NCBI GenBank assembly: GCA_039588295.1
Contig: JBDHAB010000035.1
Coordinates: forward strand, 1-32,575
Length of the DNA stretch: 32,575 bases
Source of the DNA: Gemmatimonadota bacterium
Lineage (GTDB): Bacteria > Gemmatimonadota > Gemmatimonadetes > Gemmatimonadales > GWC2-71-9
Direction: 5' to 3'
A program made the position numbers and the translations under genes. How positions within the stretch are numbered: position 1 is the stretch's first letter; each line of letters starts with the position of its first letter. Below the pieces are notes generated by a model. The model was given only the letters and a program-made list of their open reading frames with translations. It did no database searches and was not told where the DNA came from. Shown piece by piece: positions 15,645 to 24,150 of this stretch.

Positions 15645-16868
15645 TCAGCGGCCCTGATCCAGTGACTGCAGAAAGAGTACGAGGTCCGCCATCTCGGTGG
15701 CGGTGAATGTCGGCCAGGCACGACTGCCACCGACGGCCTCCGCGTCCACACGCGTGTGGTTCCATAACGCGGCGATCACGGCCGCGGGCGAACTCAGTCC
15801 GCGGACGGCGGCGATATCCCCGCCCACCGATTCACGCTGTCCACGCAACGAATGGCAGGCAAGGCACCCCTTCTCACGCAGCCGACGTGGGCCGCGGTCG
15901 GGGCTGCCCGTTTCGGTAAAGTACTGCAGCGAATAGAGATAGCCCACGAGATCGGCCATTTCCTCGGGTTCCAGCTGCGGCACCGACACTCCCCGCGCCC
16001 GCATCGCCCGCATCATCTGCGGCGCCTTGTTCCACATCGCAGCCGCAAAACTGATGAGGCTGCTGTGAGCCCGACGCTCAGCGAGGTCAGGTGCAAGCCG
16101 GCCTCCTGACCCTCCAACCGCATGACACGAACTGCACCCTCGTTCCACGAACACCCGGCGCCCATCGCCCGCCAGACCCGGGAGGACGTACAGGGGGCCC
16201 GCGAGATGTTGTGGCTTGTCTGATTCGAGATACGCGATGAGATCAGCCAACTCAGCGCCCGTGAAGCGCGGACGCCTGATCCCTTGCTCCGCCATCGCGG
16301 TGCTCATAGCCGGTCCGTGATTCCACATGGCTGCCGCGACCTGAATGGGCGCAGCGTACCTGACGCGCGTGCCAAGATCGGGGCCAAATACCCCTCCCAC
16401 GCCGCCGCCTTGGTGGCACATCACACATTGCTTGTCGGCAAACAGCTTCCCTCCCCGCTCGACATCACCTGGCGCGTCGAAGTAGTCGAGCGTGTAGAGG
16501 AATGCCATGAGGTCACCCGTTTCCCGCTCGTTCAAGCGGGGCGGGTCGAGGTCTCGCTCGCGCATTCGCTCGACCATGCGGGGTCGGTGGTTCCACATGG
16601 CGGCGGCGAGTTCGTAGAAGGTCCGCGCTTTCGGCCGCTGTGCGAGGTCGGGTCCCTCGGTGCCTCCCAACCCGTCGATCGCATGGCACTCGACGCAGTT
16701 CTTGGAACCGAAGACTCGCGCACCTGCGATTGCGCTTTGTGTCGAGGTCGTTCGCGTCTGGGCCTGTAGAGACCAGGTTACCGGAAGTACAAGAAGGATC
16801 GCGGTCCAGACCGCGATCTCTGCGGCTCGCCTACCGAGCTGGAGTCCGTTCGCCACCTTGACCCGCAT
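15645..16868 (-). CDS. tetraheme c-type cytochrome (four tandem class-I-like domains), paralog A
   Basis: CVECH, CVMCH, CSSCH, CLACH, each followed by a GPDL-like motif and WNH/WNH/WNK/WNH. N-terminal signal/anchor. ATG after GGGAGGG. Confidence 0.92.
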   Translation of the reverse strand: MRVKVANGLQLGRRAAEIAVWTAILLVLPVTWSLQAQTRTTSTQSAIAGARVFGSKNCVECHAIDGLGGTEGPDLAQRPKARTFYELAAAMWNHRPRMVERMRERDLDPPRLNERETGDLMAFLYTLDYFDAPGDVERGGKLFADKQCVMCHQGGGVGGVFGPDLGTRVRYAAPIQVAAAMWNHGPAMSTAMAEQGIRRPRFTGAELADLIAYLESDKPQHLAGPLYVLPGLAGDGRRVFVERGCSSCHAVGGSGGRLAPDLAERRAHSSLISFAAAMWNKAPQMMRAMRARGVSVPQLEPEEMADLVGYLYSLQYFTETGSPDRGPRRLREKGCLACHSLRGQRESVGGDIAAVRGLSSPAAVIAALWNHTRVDAEAVGGSRAWPTFTATEMADLVLFLQSLDQGR

Positions 16869-16962
16869 GCTCCGGCCCTCCCGTGCGATGAGCGTGATTG
16901 CCGGCGGGTCACACCCCGCCAGGCTCCCATCCTCCCGGAGGTACTTCCCCCGACTAGTACCC

Positions 16963-18180
16963 CTACGGTTCCTCTGAAGCAAGGCTCCGGAGAAAAACCG
17001 CCAGGTCTCGCATCTCGTCGTGTTCGAACCGGGGCCAGTCGGCATGGGCCACCTGAATCTGATCGTACATGGCTGGCGCGTGGTCCCACATCGCCGTCGC
17101 AAGTCCGATGGCCGTCAGCACCGCCTCCGACTGCGACAGATCGGGCCCCACCGACGGTTGGCCACCCGACGCGTGACATGCCGTGCAACCCTTTTCTGTG
17201 AACAAGCGCTCGCCGGCACGCCGATCCCCCGCCGTCTCGTAGAATCGCAGGTAGTAGAGAAACGCGATCACGTCCGCCATTTCACTGCCCCGAAACTCCG
17301 GAAACGTTATGTCCCTGGCCTGCATGGCCGCGGCCATCGTCGACTGGTGGTTCCACAGCTGCCCCGCAATCTCGGAGACCCGCAGTCGCTCCGTCGCCGC
17401 TCGCAGGTCGGGTCCGTACGACGTGCCGCGGCCGTCAGGCCCGTGGCAGCGTACACATTGCTTGACCGCGAAGAGACGCCGGCCGTTGGTCGGGTTCGGA
17501 GGCTGCAGCAGCACCATGTCCCTCCCTCGCAGCGTCGACTGCGCCCGGATGTAGGCCTGGATGTCGGCAATCTCTCGGCCAAGGAAGGTCAGCGCCCGCC
17601 CCCGCTGAGCGGACTGCTGCCGCTGCATGGCCGGACCGTGGTTCCACAATCCTTGGGCCAGCGTGATCGGGGCGATGTACCGCGCATAGGGATCCAGCGC
17701 CACGGCCGTGGTGCCGCCCACGCCGCCGACGGCATGACACTCCACACAGCCCTTCTCACCGAACCACCGCTCTCCGAATACCGGATCCCCCGGTTCGTCA
17801 AACAGCTTCACGTAGTAAATGAAGCTGATGATGTCGGCCAGTTCCTCCTCCGAGAATGTCGGCCACGCGAAACCCCGCTCCCGCACCGTCTCGATCATCC
17901 TCGGTGTATGGTTCCAGAACATCCCAGCGAGCTGTGGCAGACTACGACCGGCCCCGACCGTTGCGAAATCGGGTCCGAGTGTACCGCCACTGCCCCAGAT
18001 CGCGTGGCACCGCACACAGCGACGCTCGATGAACAGTCGTCGACCGGCGGTGGGATCCCCTGGAAAGCCGGCAGCGGATTGTGCCTGAGCTGATGATACC
18101 GCCGCGAGCAATATCCCCACGAACATCGGGGCCGTGCCAAGCCACCCACGTGCCGGGAAGTGCAAGCGTCGCGGGATCAT
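16963..18180 (-). CDS. tetraheme c-type cytochrome (four tandem class-I-like domains), paralog B
   Basis: CVRCH, CVECH, CVRCH, CTACH with WNH/WNH/WNH/WDH. Signal peptide ..SAQA. ATG overlaps the stop of the NrfD gene. Confidence 0.93.
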   Translation of the reverse strand: MIPRRLHFPARGWLGTAPMFVGILLAAVSSAQAQSAAGFPGDPTAGRRLFIERRCVRCHAIWGSGGTLGPDFATVGAGRSLPQLAGMFWNHTPRMIETVRERGFAWPTFSEEELADIISFIYYVKLFDEPGDPVFGERWFGEKGCVECHAVGGVGGTTAVALDPYARYIAPITLAQGLWNHGPAMQRQQSAQRGRALTFLGREIADIQAYIRAQSTLRGRDMVLLQPPNPTNGRRLFAVKQCVRCHGPDGRGTSYGPDLRAATERLRVSEIAGQLWNHQSTMAAAMQARDITFPEFRGSEMADVIAFLYYLRFYETAGDRRAGERLFTEKGCTACHASGGQPSVGPDLSQSEAVLTAIGLATAMWDHAPAMYDQIQVAHADWPRFEHDEMRDLAVFLRSLASEEP

Positions 18181-19520
18181 GCCAACGACCCCGAATATCC
18201 CGCTATCCGATCAGCAACCTCCTTCACCATTGCCCGCCCTTCCTTGATCTCCCAAATCGACACGATTGGCACCAGTTTGGTCGCGAGCATGTAGAGCAAG
18301 ACGAAACCGGAAAAGGTCGCCGACATGATCGAGAGTTCGATCCACGACGGGAAGTAGTGACCGATGGTCTCCAGCTCCCACCGCGGATTCACCGAGGTCG
18401 GCACCACGATGTTGTACCGTTCGAGCCACATGCCGATCACCACGGCAATGCCCGCGATGAGCGTGCCCTTCGGTGTGCGTGTTGCCCGACGTGACATCAG
18501 CGCAAACGGGATGATGAAACACCCGGCCACCATCATCCAGAAGGGTATGGCGAACGGCCCAGTCAGTTTCGCCCAAAAGGTCCGCATCTCGCCCGGTTCG
18601 CCTCCGTAGAACGCGGTCAGGTACTCCGCGAACGTGAAGTAGAACCACAGCACGCTGAGAACGAGGAGCAGGCGACCCAAGTAGTCGAAATGGACGGCTT
18701 TGAAGTAGTCTTGCAGCCGATACACCCGCCGGAGGATCACCATCGCAACCAGAATCGCGGCGATCCCGGAATAGATCGCACCCATGACGAAATAGGGCCC
18801 AAAGATCGTGCTGTGCCACATCGGCCGCAATGTCATGGCGAAGATCCACCCAATCACCGTATGAACCGATACCGCGATCGGAATCACCACGATCGAGAGA
18901 ATGCCGATCGCACGCTCGAGGCGTGCACGCTGCGGGGGGGTATCGCGATACCCGGCCGCCACGAACCGGTAGAGTCGGGGAGCCTTGATGCCGCTGTCTC
19001 GGATAATGGCCAAGTCCGGGAGCAACGGGAGGTAGAGATAGATCGTGCAGGAGACGAAGTAGAGCCCGATGCTGATGACGTCCCACAGCAAAGGTGACCG
19101 CCACTGCGCGTGCAAGATCACGTTGAGCACACGATCAGGACGGCCCAGATCGACGATTGGCTGAATGGCCCCAAAGCCGATCACGAGCACCGTAATCAGC
19201 TCGGCCGACCGGGTGATGGACCGCCGCCATTCCGCTTTGCTCACGCGCAGGATCGCTGAGATCAACGTGCCTGCATGACTGATCCCGATGAAGAACACGA
19301 AGCAGATGATGTAGATGCCCCAGTACCCCGGTCGGTTCAGCCCGGTACGGCCGAGCCCGTACTTGACCTGGAGTATGTAGGCGATCATTCCCCAGACCGT
19401 TATGGCTGCGAGAATGCCGGCGCCCACGTAGAACCCACGCGAGGTTTCGACGAGCGGTCGCAGCAGCACCCGTTCGTCGGGTGGCAGCTTGGCTAATTTC
19501 TCAGCAACGTCGCTGCGCAT
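18177..19520 (-). CDS. nrfD: NrfD/PsrC-family integral membrane subunit (ActC/QrcD-like); symbol is a family label
   Basis: GISHAGTLISAIL, WRRSITRSAE, DLGRP, SPLLWD, VSVHT, WHSTIFGPYFVMGAIYSG, GMWLERYNIVVP and about 10 TM helices. ATG lies 1 nt after the FeS gene stop. Confidence 0.93.
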   Translation of the reverse strand: MRSDVAEKLAKLPPDERVLLRPLVETSRGFYVGAGILAAITVWGMIAYILQVKYGLGRTGLNRPGYWGIYIICFVFFIGISHAGTLISAILRVSKAEWRRSITRSAELITVLVIGFGAIQPIVDLGRPDRVLNVILHAQWRSPLLWDVISIGLYFVSCTIYLYLPLLPDLAIIRDSGIKAPRLYRFVAAGYRDTPPQRARLERAIGILSIVVIPIAVSVHTVIGWIFAMTLRPMWHSTIFGPYFVMGAIYSGIAAILVAMVILRRVYRLQDYFKAVHFDYLGRLLLVLSVLWFYFTFAEYLTAFYGGEPGEMRTFWAKLTGPFAIPFWMMVAGCFIIPFALMSRRATRTPKGTLIAGIAVVIGMWLERYNIVVPTSVNPRWELETIGHYFPSWIELSIMSATFSGFVLLYMLATKLVPIVSIWEIKEGRAMVKEVADRIAGYSGSLA

Positions 19521-19521
19521 C

Positions 19522-20205
19522 TCACCCTCTCGCCTGGAGGTAGTACACTTTGGGTTGCGTTCCCAGGTCCTCCATGATGCGCGTGGCTCTCGCATCGTCC
19601 TTCAACTCGGCAACACGGTGTGTCGGGTCGTCCAAATTCCCGAATACGATCGCCCCAGTGGGGCAAACCTCCGCGCACGCTGGCTGATAGTCTTGCTCAC
19701 GCAACTCGCGACCTTCGACGCGTGCGTCCTCACGTGCTTTCTGCAAACGATGGTGGCAAAACGTGCACTTCTCGATGACTCCTCTGTCTCGCGGCGAGAC
19801 GTCCGGATTCAGATACTGGCGCTCGGACGCGGCCCAATCCGGTCCATACCAATTGAAGTACTTCACCGTGTACGGACAGGCGTTGGCACAATAGCGGCAG
19901 CCAATACAGCGCGGATAGATCTGTCCGACGATACCTTCGGCGTCGATGTACGTCGCACGCACTGGACACACCTTGATGCACGGGGGATTGTCGCAGTGCA
20001 TACAGGGGCGTGGTAAGAAGTCCATCGAGGTGTCGGGGAAGTCCCCGTGCACATGCGTCGATACCTTCATCCAGCTCATCGTGCGCCCGGCATCTGCCTC
20101 CTCGAGGGACACCGTCGGGATGTTGTTCTCGGCCTTGCACGCTACCTCGCAGGCGGCGCACCCGGTGCATCTGTCGAGGTCGATCACCATGCCCCAGCGC
20201 GTCAT
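19522..20205 (-). CDS. 4Fe-4S dicluster electron-transfer subunit (NrfC/PsrB/QrcC/ActB2-like)
   Basis: WGMVIDLDRCTGCAACEVAC, CMHCDNPPCIKVCP, CIGCRYCANACP, KCTFC..PACAEVCP: 16 cluster Cys. Confidence 0.96.
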   Translation of the reverse strand: MTRWGMVIDLDRCTGCAACEVACKAENNIPTVSLEEADAGRTMSWMKVSTHVHGDFPDTSMDFLPRPCMHCDNPPCIKVCPVRATYIDAEGIVGQIYPRCIGCRYCANACPYTVKYFNWYGPDWAASERQYLNPDVSPRDRGVIEKCTFCHHRLQKAREDARVEGRELREQDYQPACAEVCPTGAIVFGNLDDPTHRVAELKDDARATRIMEDLGTQPKVYYLQARG

Positions 20206-20217
20206 CGCATCAACCCC

Positions 20218-22581
20218 CTAGGCTCGTTCGAGCCGGACGAAGGTGGAGAACCATGACGGCAGTCCAGTCAGGACATCGGTTGAACCATCGAGGAGCGCGA
20301 GTGGGTTTGCCAGCTCACCATCAGCGTGCCGCAGACCATACGGCGCACAGACATTCTCGGGTGCAGTCCCCGGAAACACCTTCACCCGCGCTCGATAGCG
20401 CCCCTGCGCAGATACCACCCAGACAAGGGTGTCATCGTCAAAGCCCAGGTCGCTTGCTGTCGCAGGTGCGACCTCCACCCACGGTACCCAATGCACGTCA
20501 GGGAACAGACCGGGTTGCTCGGCAAGCCACCGCTCCAGTGCAACAGTCCCAGAGGAAAGCGTCGAAACGCGGTAGGGGATGAGACGGAGCGGAAAGTCGT
20601 GGGTTCCACCGTCATCGGTCGGCCCGACGTCCACGTGCAGTGCTCGCTCAGGGGCTACCTCGCGCAACGCCTCGTCGAGCGCGCGCGGCAGGAGCTCGAT
20701 CCGCCCGTCCGAGGTTCCGGCGATGCCCGCGGGATCGGTGGTATCATAGAACAGATCGGTCCAACCACCTCGATCGACGAGCGCATCCCAAAACGCCTCA
20801 AACTCGGTGTGCTCCGCGAGCCACCAACCCCGTGCTTCCATCGCTCGATGCTGCTCGCGCTCGAACGCATCACCGAGCAGCATGCCGCGACCCGCTCGGA
20901 ACAGGCCTCGCGCCCGCGCTCGAACCAGGGCTTCGAAGCTCTCGAACGGCAGGCTCTGCGCCATGGGGCCTCCAAGCCTCCTCGCGAGCGCAAGCACGGC
21001 ATCACCCGTGTGTACCGGGCCTTCGGGCGGCTCGACCACAGGTCGTACCAACCCCCACGTCGCATAGGGGTACGTGGGCGAGCCCGGCGCATCCTGCCAC
21101 CGCTCATACGGCAGCAAGTCGGGGAGCACGAGGTCCGCCTGTGAGGCGGTCTCGTCGAGAAACGGGGAAAAGCTCACGACGAACGGGATCCGATCGAGTG
21201 CTTGCCGCCACGCCTCGGGCCTCGCAGACGACGCCAACGGGTTCGCGTAGTACAGCAACAGCGTGTCGATCTCCGGCCCATCGGCAGCGGCCATGGCCTC
21301 CGCGAACCGCACAGGACGGTCGCCGTCACCGAACGGGGGCATGCCGTTCAGCACCGGTTGCCGGGCTAGTCCGGCGCGGCTCGTCGCGTCTGCAGCGGGT
21401 GTCGGCAGCGCCTCGACTGGCGCGTCGCTGCCGAACATCACGCCACCTGCCCGGTTCACCCGGCCCATGAGCACGTTGAGGCTGTGCACGGCCACGCCAG
21501 CGAGGAGGCCGTTCGGTGCGTGCAGGACGTCACTGCCCGGAACGACCACCGGTGCCTCGCTCCGAGCAAGCGCTCGGGCGAGCGAGGTGATTCGCTCCAC
21601 CGGGACCCCGGTGACCGCCGATACCTCCTCCGTGCGATACCGCCGCATCACGAGCGACCGGTATCCTTCGCGGCGTTGCCCACGCGCATCGGTGAAGTCT
21701 TCAAACCCCGAGACGTGTCGTGCGACAAATGCTGCGTCGTACAGCTCGTCACGGATGAGCACGTACGCCATGCCCATCGCAAGGACCGCGTGGGTACCGG
21801 GCCGAATGCCCACCCACTCGTGTGCACGGGCGGCAGTGCGGGAAAAACGGGTGTCGACCTGTACGAACCGGGGACGGGCCGGGCGCTCCGCTCCCGGGTC
21901 CGCATACGCCACGAAGGCCTGAAGCGGCGACCACCACGACTCGAACAAGGGCGCCCCGAACGAGAGCACGAAGTCCGCCCGCTCCAAGTCGTAGCTGGGC
22001 GCACGCCGGATTCCGTGCATCAGCGCCATCACGGCGCTGCTCCCATCGTAATAGTCGTCCGCAACGTAGTTGGGCGACCCGTAGGAACGGAGGAACTGCT
22101 GCCAGACGTCCTGCATGCTCGCGGCGGAGAACCCACTTAGTACGGCGAGCGCCTCCGGTCGACCACCGGCTCGCAGCGCTTGGAGCCGTTCGCTGACCTG
22201 GTCGAGGGCATCGTCGGCTGAGATCTCTCTCCACTCCCCGGCACCGCGCGCGCCGACTCGGGCGAGCGGGTGGATCACGCGATCGGGGTGATACAGCATC
22301 TGCACACCGGCAATCCCTCGGGGACAGATGCCACCGCGGTTCATCGGATGCAGGGGACTCCCGACCAGCCGAACGAGTCGGCCGTCGACGACACGGGCAC
22401 TGATGCCGCAGCGCGACGGACAGATGAGACACGCCGAATTGAACCGCTCCTCGACGCCCGGAGCCCACCCCGGGTCGTCGAGCACGTCAGCTTCCCACAC
22501 CACATCCTGCGACCATCGTAGGCCGACAGCCGTTGCCGCCGCACCCACTGTCCAGAGAAACTCGCGTCGTGTGGATCCCAT
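20218..22581 (-). CDS. Tat-exported molybdopterin-oxidoreductase-like subunit (QrcB/ActB1-like)
   Basis: Tat motif STRREFL, FS0 motif CLICPSRC..GICPRG, LYHPDR..PL, GSPN, DTRFSRTA..A.EW..IRPGT, FLDETASQADLVLP and a C-terminal dinucleotide-binding-like domain. Confidence 0.93.
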   Translation of the reverse strand: MGSTRREFLWTVGAAATAVGLRWSQDVVWEADVLDDPGWAPGVEERFNSACLICPSRCGISARVVDGRLVRLVGSPLHPMNRGGICPRGIAGVQMLYHPDRVIHPLARVGARGAGEWREISADDALDQVSERLQALRAGGRPEALAVLSGFSAASMQDVWQQFLRSYGSPNYVADDYYDGSSAVMALMHGIRRAPSYDLERADFVLSFGAPLFESWWSPLQAFVAYADPGAERPARPRFVQVDTRFSRTAARAHEWVGIRPGTHAVLAMGMAYVLIRDELYDAAFVARHVSGFEDFTDARGQRREGYRSLVMRRYRTEEVSAVTGVPVERITSLARALARSEAPVVVPGSDVLHAPNGLLAGVAVHSLNVLMGRVNRAGGVMFGSDAPVEALPTPAADATSRAGLARQPVLNGMPPFGDGDRPVRFAEAMAAADGPEIDTLLLYYANPLASSARPEAWRQALDRIPFVVSFSPFLDETASQADLVLPDLLPYERWQDAPGSPTYPYATWGLVRPVVEPPEGPVHTGDAVLALARRLGGPMAQSLPFESFEALVRARARGLFRAGRGMLLGDAFEREQHRAMEARGWWLAEHTEFEAFWDALVDRGGWTDLFYDTTDPAGIAGTSDGRIELLPRALDEALREVAPERALHVDVGPTDDGGTHDFPLRLIPYRVSTLSSGTVALERWLAEQPGLFPDVHWVPWVEVAPATASDLGFDDDTLVWVVSAQGRYRARVKVFPGTAPENVCAPYGLRHADGELANPLALLDGSTDVLTGLPSWFSTFVRLERA

Positions 22582-22597
22582 GATGTCGAGCTCCGCC

Positions 22598-23098
22598 CTA
22601 GCGATGGCAGGCGTTGCAGTCAAGCGTCGCCCCTTGTTCCCGGTGGCAGTCCATGCAGAAGTCCATATCGATCCGCATGAGGGCTCGGCGAGGGGGCCGC
22701 TCCGTCGCGGCGATGTCGCCGTGACAGCGTTCGCACGGAAGCTCGGCGACCGCGACGTGACGCCGATGTGTGTAGAAAACGTGGTCCGGCATCCGAAACA
22801 GCTTGTTGAACTGGAGCGGATCGCCTGCGGTGAGGAGTTCTGTCACGCGGGCTGCTTCCTCAGACTCTCCCTGAGCCGCCGAATGACAGAGGGAACACGT
22901 GGTGGCGTCGGGCAGCCCGGAGTGGGCGCCGGTCTGCGCGTAGGGGTGGCAGAACTCGCAGGCAAGCTCGAGTTGCTGCGTGTGTTTGGCGTGGTTGAAT
23001 GCCACCGGCTGCGGCACCGCGGAGCCCCGGCGCACGATCGTCACGATGGCCGTCACACCGAGCAGGAACGCCACCGCCACCGGCAGCACCAGGCGCAT
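22598..23098 (-). CDS. membrane-anchored pentaheme cytochrome c (ActA/QrcA-like)
   Basis: N-terminal TM helix, QPVAFNHAKH, CEFCH, CSLCH, PDHVFYTHRRHV, CERCH, MDFCMDCH, DCNACH. Start at ATG 23098 is inferred. Confidence 0.92.
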   Translation of the reverse strand: MRLVLPVAVAFLLGVTAIVTIVRRGSAVPQPVAFNHAKHTQQLELACEFCHPYAQTGAHSGLPDATTCSLCHSAAQGESEEAARVTELLTAGDPLQFNKLFRMPDHVFYTHRRHVAVAELPCERCHGDIAATERPPRRALMRIDMDFCMDCHREQGATLDCNACHR

Positions 23099-23667: not shown

Positions 23668-24150
23668 CTACGCTAAAGGATCCCTTTGCCGGACATTCGT
23701 CTTGATCTCCGACACCAGGATCCGGCGGGCAAATTCATACCGCTCACCGACGATGCGGGCGATGTTCTTCATGACGATGAAGCCCAATCGGACATCTGCG
23801 TCGCAGCATTCCTGCAAGTCGGACTGCTTGATCCGCAATAGCTCCGAATCTTCGACCGCGTGGGCCGTGAGTGTGTAGCGGTGCGGTGGAATCATCGCAG
23901 ACCAGCCGCATGCACCATAAGCTCCTACGGTGTCCAGCGGGAGTTCGTCCGTGGCACCGGCGTACTCGACCTGAAACCGGAGCTCGACTCGTCCGGAGCG
24001 CACAAACACGAGATGTGTGGCGGGATCGCCCGCCTTGAAGATCGTTTCACCCTGCTTGACGGTCATGATCTCGCAACGCTGCCCGAGCACGTTCAACTGT
24101 TCCGGCGTCAGGCCTTCAAAAATGGGAAACGCCTCGAGTCCATCCATCAT
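23668..24150 (-). CDS. stand-alone cyclic-nucleotide-binding domain protein (Crp-type sensor domain, no HTH)
   Basis: RBS GGGAGGA. FPIFEGL..EQL, GETIFKAGDPA, VRSGRVEL, GWSAMIPPHRYTLTA.A.EDS.LL.I. 160 aa. Confidence 0.9.
   Translation of the reverse strand: MMDGLEAFPIFEGLTPEQLNVLGQRCEIMTVKQGETIFKAGDPATHLVFVRSGRVELRFQVEYAGATDELPLDTVGAYGACGWSAMIPPHRYTLTAHAVEDSELLRIKQSDLQECCDADVRLGFIVMKNIARIVGERYEFARRILVSEIKTNVRQRDPLA

Follow-up and report, generated by a model that had tools for sequence, protein, structure and literature searches.

The stretch of DNA analyzed here, called the window below, is an entire contig (C35) of 32,575 nucleotides from a Gemmatimonadota genome that is 96% complete. On its minus strand it carries six co-oriented genes for a redox complex related to alternative complex III (ACIII), lettered A to F in the order of transcription. 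Gene A (22598..23098) encodes a membrane-anchored pentaheme cytochrome c of the ActA/QrcA type (166 aa, five CxxCH motifs) with a single N-terminal hydrophobic helix. Gene B (20218..22581, 787 aa) encodes a stand-alone subunit resembling ActB1 and QrcB, which is exported by the twin-arginine translocation (Tat) route and likely free of molybdenum. Gene C (19522..20205, 227 aa) encodes an iron-sulfur (FeS) subunit with four clusters, 16 cluster Cys and no signal peptide. Gene D (18177..19520, 447 aa) specifies an NrfD-type membrane subunit recognized as ActC-like from a structure match and from trees. Gene E (16963..18180, 405 aa) encodes a secreted tetraheme cytochrome at the position of ActE, and gene F (15645..16868, 407 aa) an optional second one, each with four CxxCH motifs. 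The intergenic gaps are 16, 12, 1, -4, and 94 bp and the six genes contain 13 heme motifs in total (one more CxxCH, found in C, belongs to an FeS motif), all as given in an earlier note on this sequence. The same note correctly described a split B, a single NrfD subunit and the lack of ActD/E/F and of an adjacent oxidase, and the whole window is devoid of such genes; its assignment to Gemmatimonadota agrees with the named homologs of B and E, which belong to this phylum.

B was used as the query for a search with one genome per species, which confirmed 92 stretches; 80 loci were retained from these. Gene order was counted only at loci that are long enough to tell, and the genomes are kin rather than independent samples. 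Among the informative Gemmatimonadota loci, all 72 have A before B, 74/74 have C after B, 72/72 have D after C, and 67/67 have E after D, whereas F follows E in 32 out of 57. The six-gene arrangement is therefore not due to chance, and the counts for E and F define a conserved unit of five genes (A to E) with F being optional. The expectation that both tetrahemes are kept beside the core in other genomes thus holds for E and only in part for F. The dedicated two-tetraheme module that had been proposed is not supported either. A tree built from 44 tetrahemes places E and F, which are 37% identical, in separate clades (support 100/100), and genes of the F clade lead operons with nonaheme, Rieske and cytochrome b genes without an adjacent core (L032, L034-L036). 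In other lineages both tetrahemes are supplied by duplicates of the E clade (L134, L138, L144), and the two-tetraheme ending must have arisen via more than one route. A fusion of NrfD and tetraheme, hinted at by long open frames in some loci, was rejected since in those loci D and E are two genes that lie in different frames. Frameshifts in E, D or B were seen in single assemblies (L043:14445-15556; L075:3203-4464; L048) and may reflect either assembly error or decay. One record titled Akkermansiaceae (L111) carries the operon at 64-82% identity together with Gemmatimonadota-like neighbors and is possibly a mis-binned contig.

The E protein consists of four domains of about 90 residues, each having a CxxCH motif followed 33-34 residues further on by W-x-H-x-x-x-M, with the Met being invariant in domains 1-3. 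His/Met ligation of the hemes would fit this repeat; class I hemes of this kind usually have a high potential and lie downhill from menaquinol. The structure of E is predicted with confidence (pLDDT 85.9, pTM 0.81). Its single domains resemble class I cytochromes in a structure search (best VIA Z 6.6, one NorC domain), and Foldseek with the E model gave no match at E <= 0.001. No solved structure spans the whole of E, which does not show that the fold is new.

The core of the complex is closest to ACIII. D matches ActC structures with 217 bits and groups with ActC at 100/100 in a tree of D, in which the window-type proteins form one clade sister to ActC (86/92). In a concatenated core tree of 25 rows, the window type groups with ACIII at 96/98 and ACIII itself is one clade at 100/100, but window-type monophyly is recovered in 43% of the bootstrap trees; this tree was made under LG+G4 without a mixture model and with long branches flagged. 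A tree of C alone does not separate the window type, Qrc and ACIII. ‘Sister or stem group of ACIII’ fits the core better than ‘hybrid’. We do not claim as shown that the window type is ancestral to ACIII. Compared to ACIII (ActABCDEF; 6F0K, 6BTM, 6LOD, 8K9E), the window type shares the pentaheme A, the B1 subunit resembling molybdenum (Mo) enzymes, the FeS subunit B2, a membrane subunit of the ActC clade with most of the proposed proton-path residues, and a class I cytochrome gene following the core. It differs by the lack of ActD and ActF in the operon, the split B, four Cys at the quinone-proximal cluster instead of the three of the [3Fe-4S] motif, Asp and Ile/Val in place of His139/Asp253, and a tetraheme instead of the monoheme ActE.

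The residues of D were mapped on Rhodothermus marinus ActC via an alignment and the residue table in the accessible part of PMC8076601. D keeps 12 out of 13 N-side residues listed for ActC, the exception being Ser180 (Cys in 40 copies, Ser in 17), and five out of six P-side residues, in addition to Trp82, Ser164, and Asp169 (ActC numbering). The quinol-site trio His139, Asp169, and Asp253 of ActC corresponds to Asp124, Asp147, and Ile226 in D, in 57/57 copies. All counts on 57 copies refer to the window together with 56 complete loci. In C, the 16 cluster Cys are invariant in 57/57 aligned copies, including all four at the quinone-proximal cluster, one of which is replaced by Thr in the ActB of the host itself.

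The host also possesses a full canonical cluster on contig C7 (actA, fused actB, actC, actD, actE, and actF), whose ActA is 29% identical to A. The possibility, raised earlier, that the core belongs within canonical ACIII with actDEF elsewhere is thus borne out only in its second half: actDEF are present, as part of a separate full ACIII, and the core lies outside the ACIII clade. We surveyed 301 Gemmatimonadota genomes with a completeness of at least 90%. A match to D at E <= 1e-60 is present in 284 of them, and 25 contain a match of at least 56% identity. All these 25 genomes also hold a second ActC-type match, and the complex is therefore considered accessory; in the 20 genomes with a second row listed, this second match has 35-39% identity, the level of canonical ActC. 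The five-gene unit even adjoins the canonical ACIII cluster in five loci (L207, L076, L085, L089, L099), and in L207 it directly follows actF on the same strand.

The earlier note had called the core Qrc-like, and the window operon does have the A-B-C-D order, the separate B and C and the single NrfD subunit in common with QrcABCD. All four subunits nevertheless score below the NCBIfam cut-offs for Qrc: A reaches 94 bits with the QrcA model (cut-off 180), B 301 with QrcB (440), C 316 with QrcC (400), and D only 31.8 with QrcD (570). As a control, nine Qrc cassettes from metagenomes score 603-692 on the QrcD model. D lies outside the QrcD clade and inside that of ActC, and B lies outside the clade whose tested members mostly exceed the QrcB cut-off. 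The fixed tetraheme as fifth gene is a further difference from Qrc, as is a host without a match to [NiFe] hydrogenase.

B has a twin-arginine N-terminus and the domains Molybdopterin, Molybdop_Fe4S4, and Molydop_binding, and annotations usually describe it as a catalytic molybdoenzyme. The Cys of the FS0 motif (51, 54, 58, 86) are kept in 57/57 copies and, depending on the position, in 96-102 out of 102 members of the wider B family. The predicted structure (pLDDT 90.5) is closest to the ArrA fold (TM 0.82). Asp179 aligns with the Cys that ligates Mo in ArrA and is invariant in the 57 Gemmatimonadota copies, where it may act as a helix cap; in the wider family only 40 out of 102 members have Asp at this position and 93 have no Cys in the vicinity. 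The segments of domains II and IV are nearer to ActB than to the Mo enzymes of the host, and in the pocket for bis-molybdopterin guanine dinucleotide some motifs are kept and others are ActB-like. B shares a radiation with QrcB and ActB1 (FastTree, 157 rows) with weak deep support, and the accessible texts report both ActB1 (PMC5928083) and QrcB (PMC13059093) to be free of cofactor. B is very probably Mo-free. It has the fold and FS0 motif in common with PsrABC/ArrAB, next to the subunit with four [4Fe-4S] clusters, but it has no Cys ligand, its cofactor-binding segments are altered, and the complex has additional multiheme subunits.

The window type is not confined to the loci above. More than 100 stand-alone relatives of B were found at 28-44% identity (representatives at 50% identity), and among ten that were looked up, two carried a taxon (Acidobacteriota and Tectomicrobia). 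A similarity atlas placed look-alike clusters of the tetraheme in Gemmatimonadota, Acidobacteriota, Methylomirabilota, and Rokuibacteriota. A metagenome scan gave 575 confirmed stretches, and all cassette counts given here rest on the best 79 loci. The genes for B, C, and an NrfD protein occur together in 44 loci, 23 of which have the window signature, 10 are of the ACIII type (Thr in the cluster motif together with His and Asp), nine are Qrc, and two are other. Two of the 23 window-type contigs end too soon for the tetraheme count. A tetraheme of the same family is located beside all 21 informative ones (19 downstream, two upstream), and ActD beside none of these 21. In contrast, ActD follows nine out of 10 ACIII-type cassettes (the remaining contig ends), and no tetraheme of this family was found beside ACIII or Qrc cassettes, although three of the nine Qrc contigs end within 2.6 kb. 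Retention of FS0 in the metagenome loci follows by construction, since the scan patterns contained the FS0 motif, and was not used as evidence. A divergent cassette (L122:2284-7945, L137:1939-7600) encodes a seven-heme A, a B in which the fourth FS0 Cys is missing, and a D that is longer and differs in its quinone-site residues; in L122 it directly precedes a window-type cassette. Another locus (L213:7761-10818) pairs an FeS gene with one that resembles D (46% identity, with the same Asp but without Asp253) and has no match to A, B, or the tetraheme in the 20 kb fetched.

The host genome encodes a menaquinone gene of the futalosine pathway, two heme-copper oxidases, a clade II NosZ and a NapA-like protein, and gave no match to [NiFe] hydrogenase or bd oxidase. 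Beside gyrB it harbors a multiheme island (G000:C4:115360-144874; L201, L202) with an octaheme/FeS/NrfD set, two Rieske/cytochrome b modules, cytochromes with 9, 11, 12, 19, and 21 hemes, HmcB/C-like genes, GcvH-like proteins, and a two-component system. The island also includes an unannotated predicted beta-barrel, which scores 0.92-0.93 in the atlas to outer-membrane barrels; the F-type tetraheme found at the head of this module in relatives is absent. In six loci (L049, L050, L052, L053, L054, L069), the six genes are located inside such an island, flanked by its NrfD gene on one side and its first nonaheme on the other. An excision of the six genes from the island of the host was considered and rejected, because close relatives carry block and island apart from each other and with an F in both. 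In five genomes (L092/L219, L086, L077, L055, L091), homologs of the beta-barrel gene with flanking multihemes lie about 7 kb or less from the operon. At many other loci the operon is accompanied by a divergent sigma-54 two-component system, and a sigma-54-like motif is present upstream in eight of 17 such loci, compared with 0.05 in base shuffles, with a pattern that was tightened after hits were seen; the window has no such motif. A search for sigma-70 promoters gave none (1.6 expected), and terminators occur at chance level. There was no oxidase among the recurrent neighbors scanned. The window further encodes a stand-alone protein with a cNMP-binding domain (23668-24150), upstream of A and like it on the minus strand; L022/L068 have a homolog of 74% identity some 4.5 kb beyond the downstream end of the operon.

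We propose, with a probability of about 0.55 and on the basis of sequence comparison, that the window type is an accessory menaquinol:cytochrome c oxidoreductase feeding anaerobic periplasmic multiheme chains. D would oxidize menaquinol, and electrons would likely pass from D to the FeS subunit C, then to the pentaheme A and on to the tetraheme E, following the electron path given for ACIII in the accessible text of PMC5928083. E would take the place of ActE and hand the electrons over to the periplasmic multiheme chains of anaerobic respiration. B would be a Tat-exported scaffold that carries C out, with one [4Fe-4S] cluster and no molybdenum cofactor, and F an additional, dispensable carrier that also serves Rieske/cytochrome b modules. 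Among candidates for the final acceptor, a porin-multiheme conduit ranks first, with NapA or NosZ next. Several observations speak against this proposal. The replacement of His139 by Asp and of Asp253 by Ile is found in 57/57 D copies, and both the Asp at the His139 position and the four-Cys proximal motif are common to true Qrc cassettes, in which electrons flow in the opposite direction. Domains 3 and 4 of F depart from the E-type repeat. The link to a porin is limited to the five genomes mentioned, most loci adjoining a two-component system or unrelated genes, and in the host the operon and the multiheme island are located on different contigs.

The same quinone site could also be read in reverse, with E and F acting as periplasmic cytochromes that deliver external or periplasmic electrons for the reduction of menaquinone with protons from the cytoplasm, as in Qrc. 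We consider this unlikely, although two Qrc-like traits, the replacement of the His/Asp pair and the cluster with four Cys, lend it some weight: Asp124 of D matches QrcD Asp120 by position, four proximal Cys are present in 9/9 cassettes validated by QrcD, and C keeps (55/57) a Tyr after the third cluster motif that is described as essential in QrcC in the accessible text of PMC13059093. The split B and the single NrfD subunit agree with it as well. The Asp is no marker of direction, however, since the QrcD Asp120 variant kept 68% activity according to the same text and an acidic residue is also present at this position in the quinol-oxidizing PsrC. The Tyr also occurs in ActB, D is not a QrcD by either score or clade, and a [NiFe] hydrogenase match is missing in the host.

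Two other explanations concern the role of the complex. It could be a redundant, stripped ACIII delivering electrons to the oxygen reductases that the canonical copy already feeds, as suggested by the ActC-like D, the five loci adjoining a canonical ACIII and the two heme-copper oxidases of the host. Yet the quinone site, the proximal cluster, and the terminal cytochrome all differ, jointly and consistently, the canonical ActC type is near-universal in the phylum while the window type is restricted to 25 genomes, and the recurrent neighbors scanned include no oxidase, which makes redundancy improbable. Even more doubtful is a catalytic role for B as a Mo/W enzyme that uses Asp as its ligand, with the hemes forming a side branch. 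Invariant FS0 Cys, an Asp179 at the ligand position of ArrA and a full-length ArrA-like fold would suit such an enzyme, but the Asp is not maintained in the wider family, the segments of domains II and IV follow the pattern of the cofactor-less ActB, and B belongs to the same radiation as two subunits reported to be cofactor-free. A more far-reaching version of the menaquinol-oxidizing proposal, which we regard as speculative, is that the window type constitutes, next to ACIII and Qrc, a third widespread family, which would still be in the state from before ACIII acquired the His/Asp pair, the [3Fe-4S] cluster, and ActF. An unbroken wire of five [4Fe-4S] clusters from the quinone site to FS0 would then be a second exit besides the hemes, and in sediment Gemmatimonadota the complex would be the inner-membrane quinol oxidase from which extracellular electron transfer proceeds through a porin-multiheme conduit.

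The earlier note knew of no biochemical description of this architecture but allowed for its presence in comparative surveys. Nearly the same cluster has been published, and a biochemical study of the window type was not found in the literature searched, although subscription reviews on ACIII variants may describe the type. According to the accessible text of PMC9386147, cluster 4 of MBNT15 bacterium SHF-111 comprises ActABCD and a four-heme ActE-like protein, is located far from an oxidase and adjoins FeS/NrfD/multiheme modules. The ActA-like pentaheme, the ActB/C-like core, the four-heme protein, the octaheme/FeS/NrfD neighbor, and the absence of a nearby oxidase are all shared with the window type. 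The SHF-111 tetraheme (NCA08_05800) has the same CxxCH...WNH repeat, which also occurs in proteins from eight further MBNT15 genomes (PMC9386147, accessible part of supplementary table 5). The SHF-111 cluster differs in that the tetraheme is a predicted lipoprotein, ActD is listed, and a second tetraheme is not named in the text at hand; it is a genome inference, and its B, C, and D were compared here by description, not by residues. The split B and the loss of ActF have been noted before in iron oxidizers (PMC4643136) and Nitrospirales (PMC12342949), as far as the accessible texts go. These ACIII share the actB1/actB2 split, the absence of ActF (Nitrospirales) and FS0 in ActB1 (iron oxidizers), but they keep ActD and ActE, and comparable cassettes sampled from metagenomes keep His139/Asp253 and the three-Cys cluster. 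The accessible parts of PMC9426454, PMC5317091, PMC3362086, PMC10564751, PMC3903129, and PMC6303296 do not describe the window type. The complex is thus real and conserved, apparently never purified, and its architecture is already in print.

The window type provides a natural variant for two questions on ACIII: whether quinol oxidation and proton translocation depend on His139/Asp253 and ActF, and what role is played by the unexplained [4Fe-4S] branch, which is called elusive in the accessible text of PMC5928083. In addition, the annotation of B as a catalytic molybdoenzyme misleads metabolic reconstructions. If the complex does feed a porin-cytochrome conduit, this would point to respiration of minerals or humic substances in uncultured sediment Gemmatimonadota. 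A further cluster in the host genome (G000:C72:2960-10648; L206) encodes an alginate-export-type porin, a Rieske protein, a cytochrome b, an HAO-like octaheme, NapA, and a tetraheme, and resembles the Nap cluster described for Caldithrix in the accessible part of PMC5317091.

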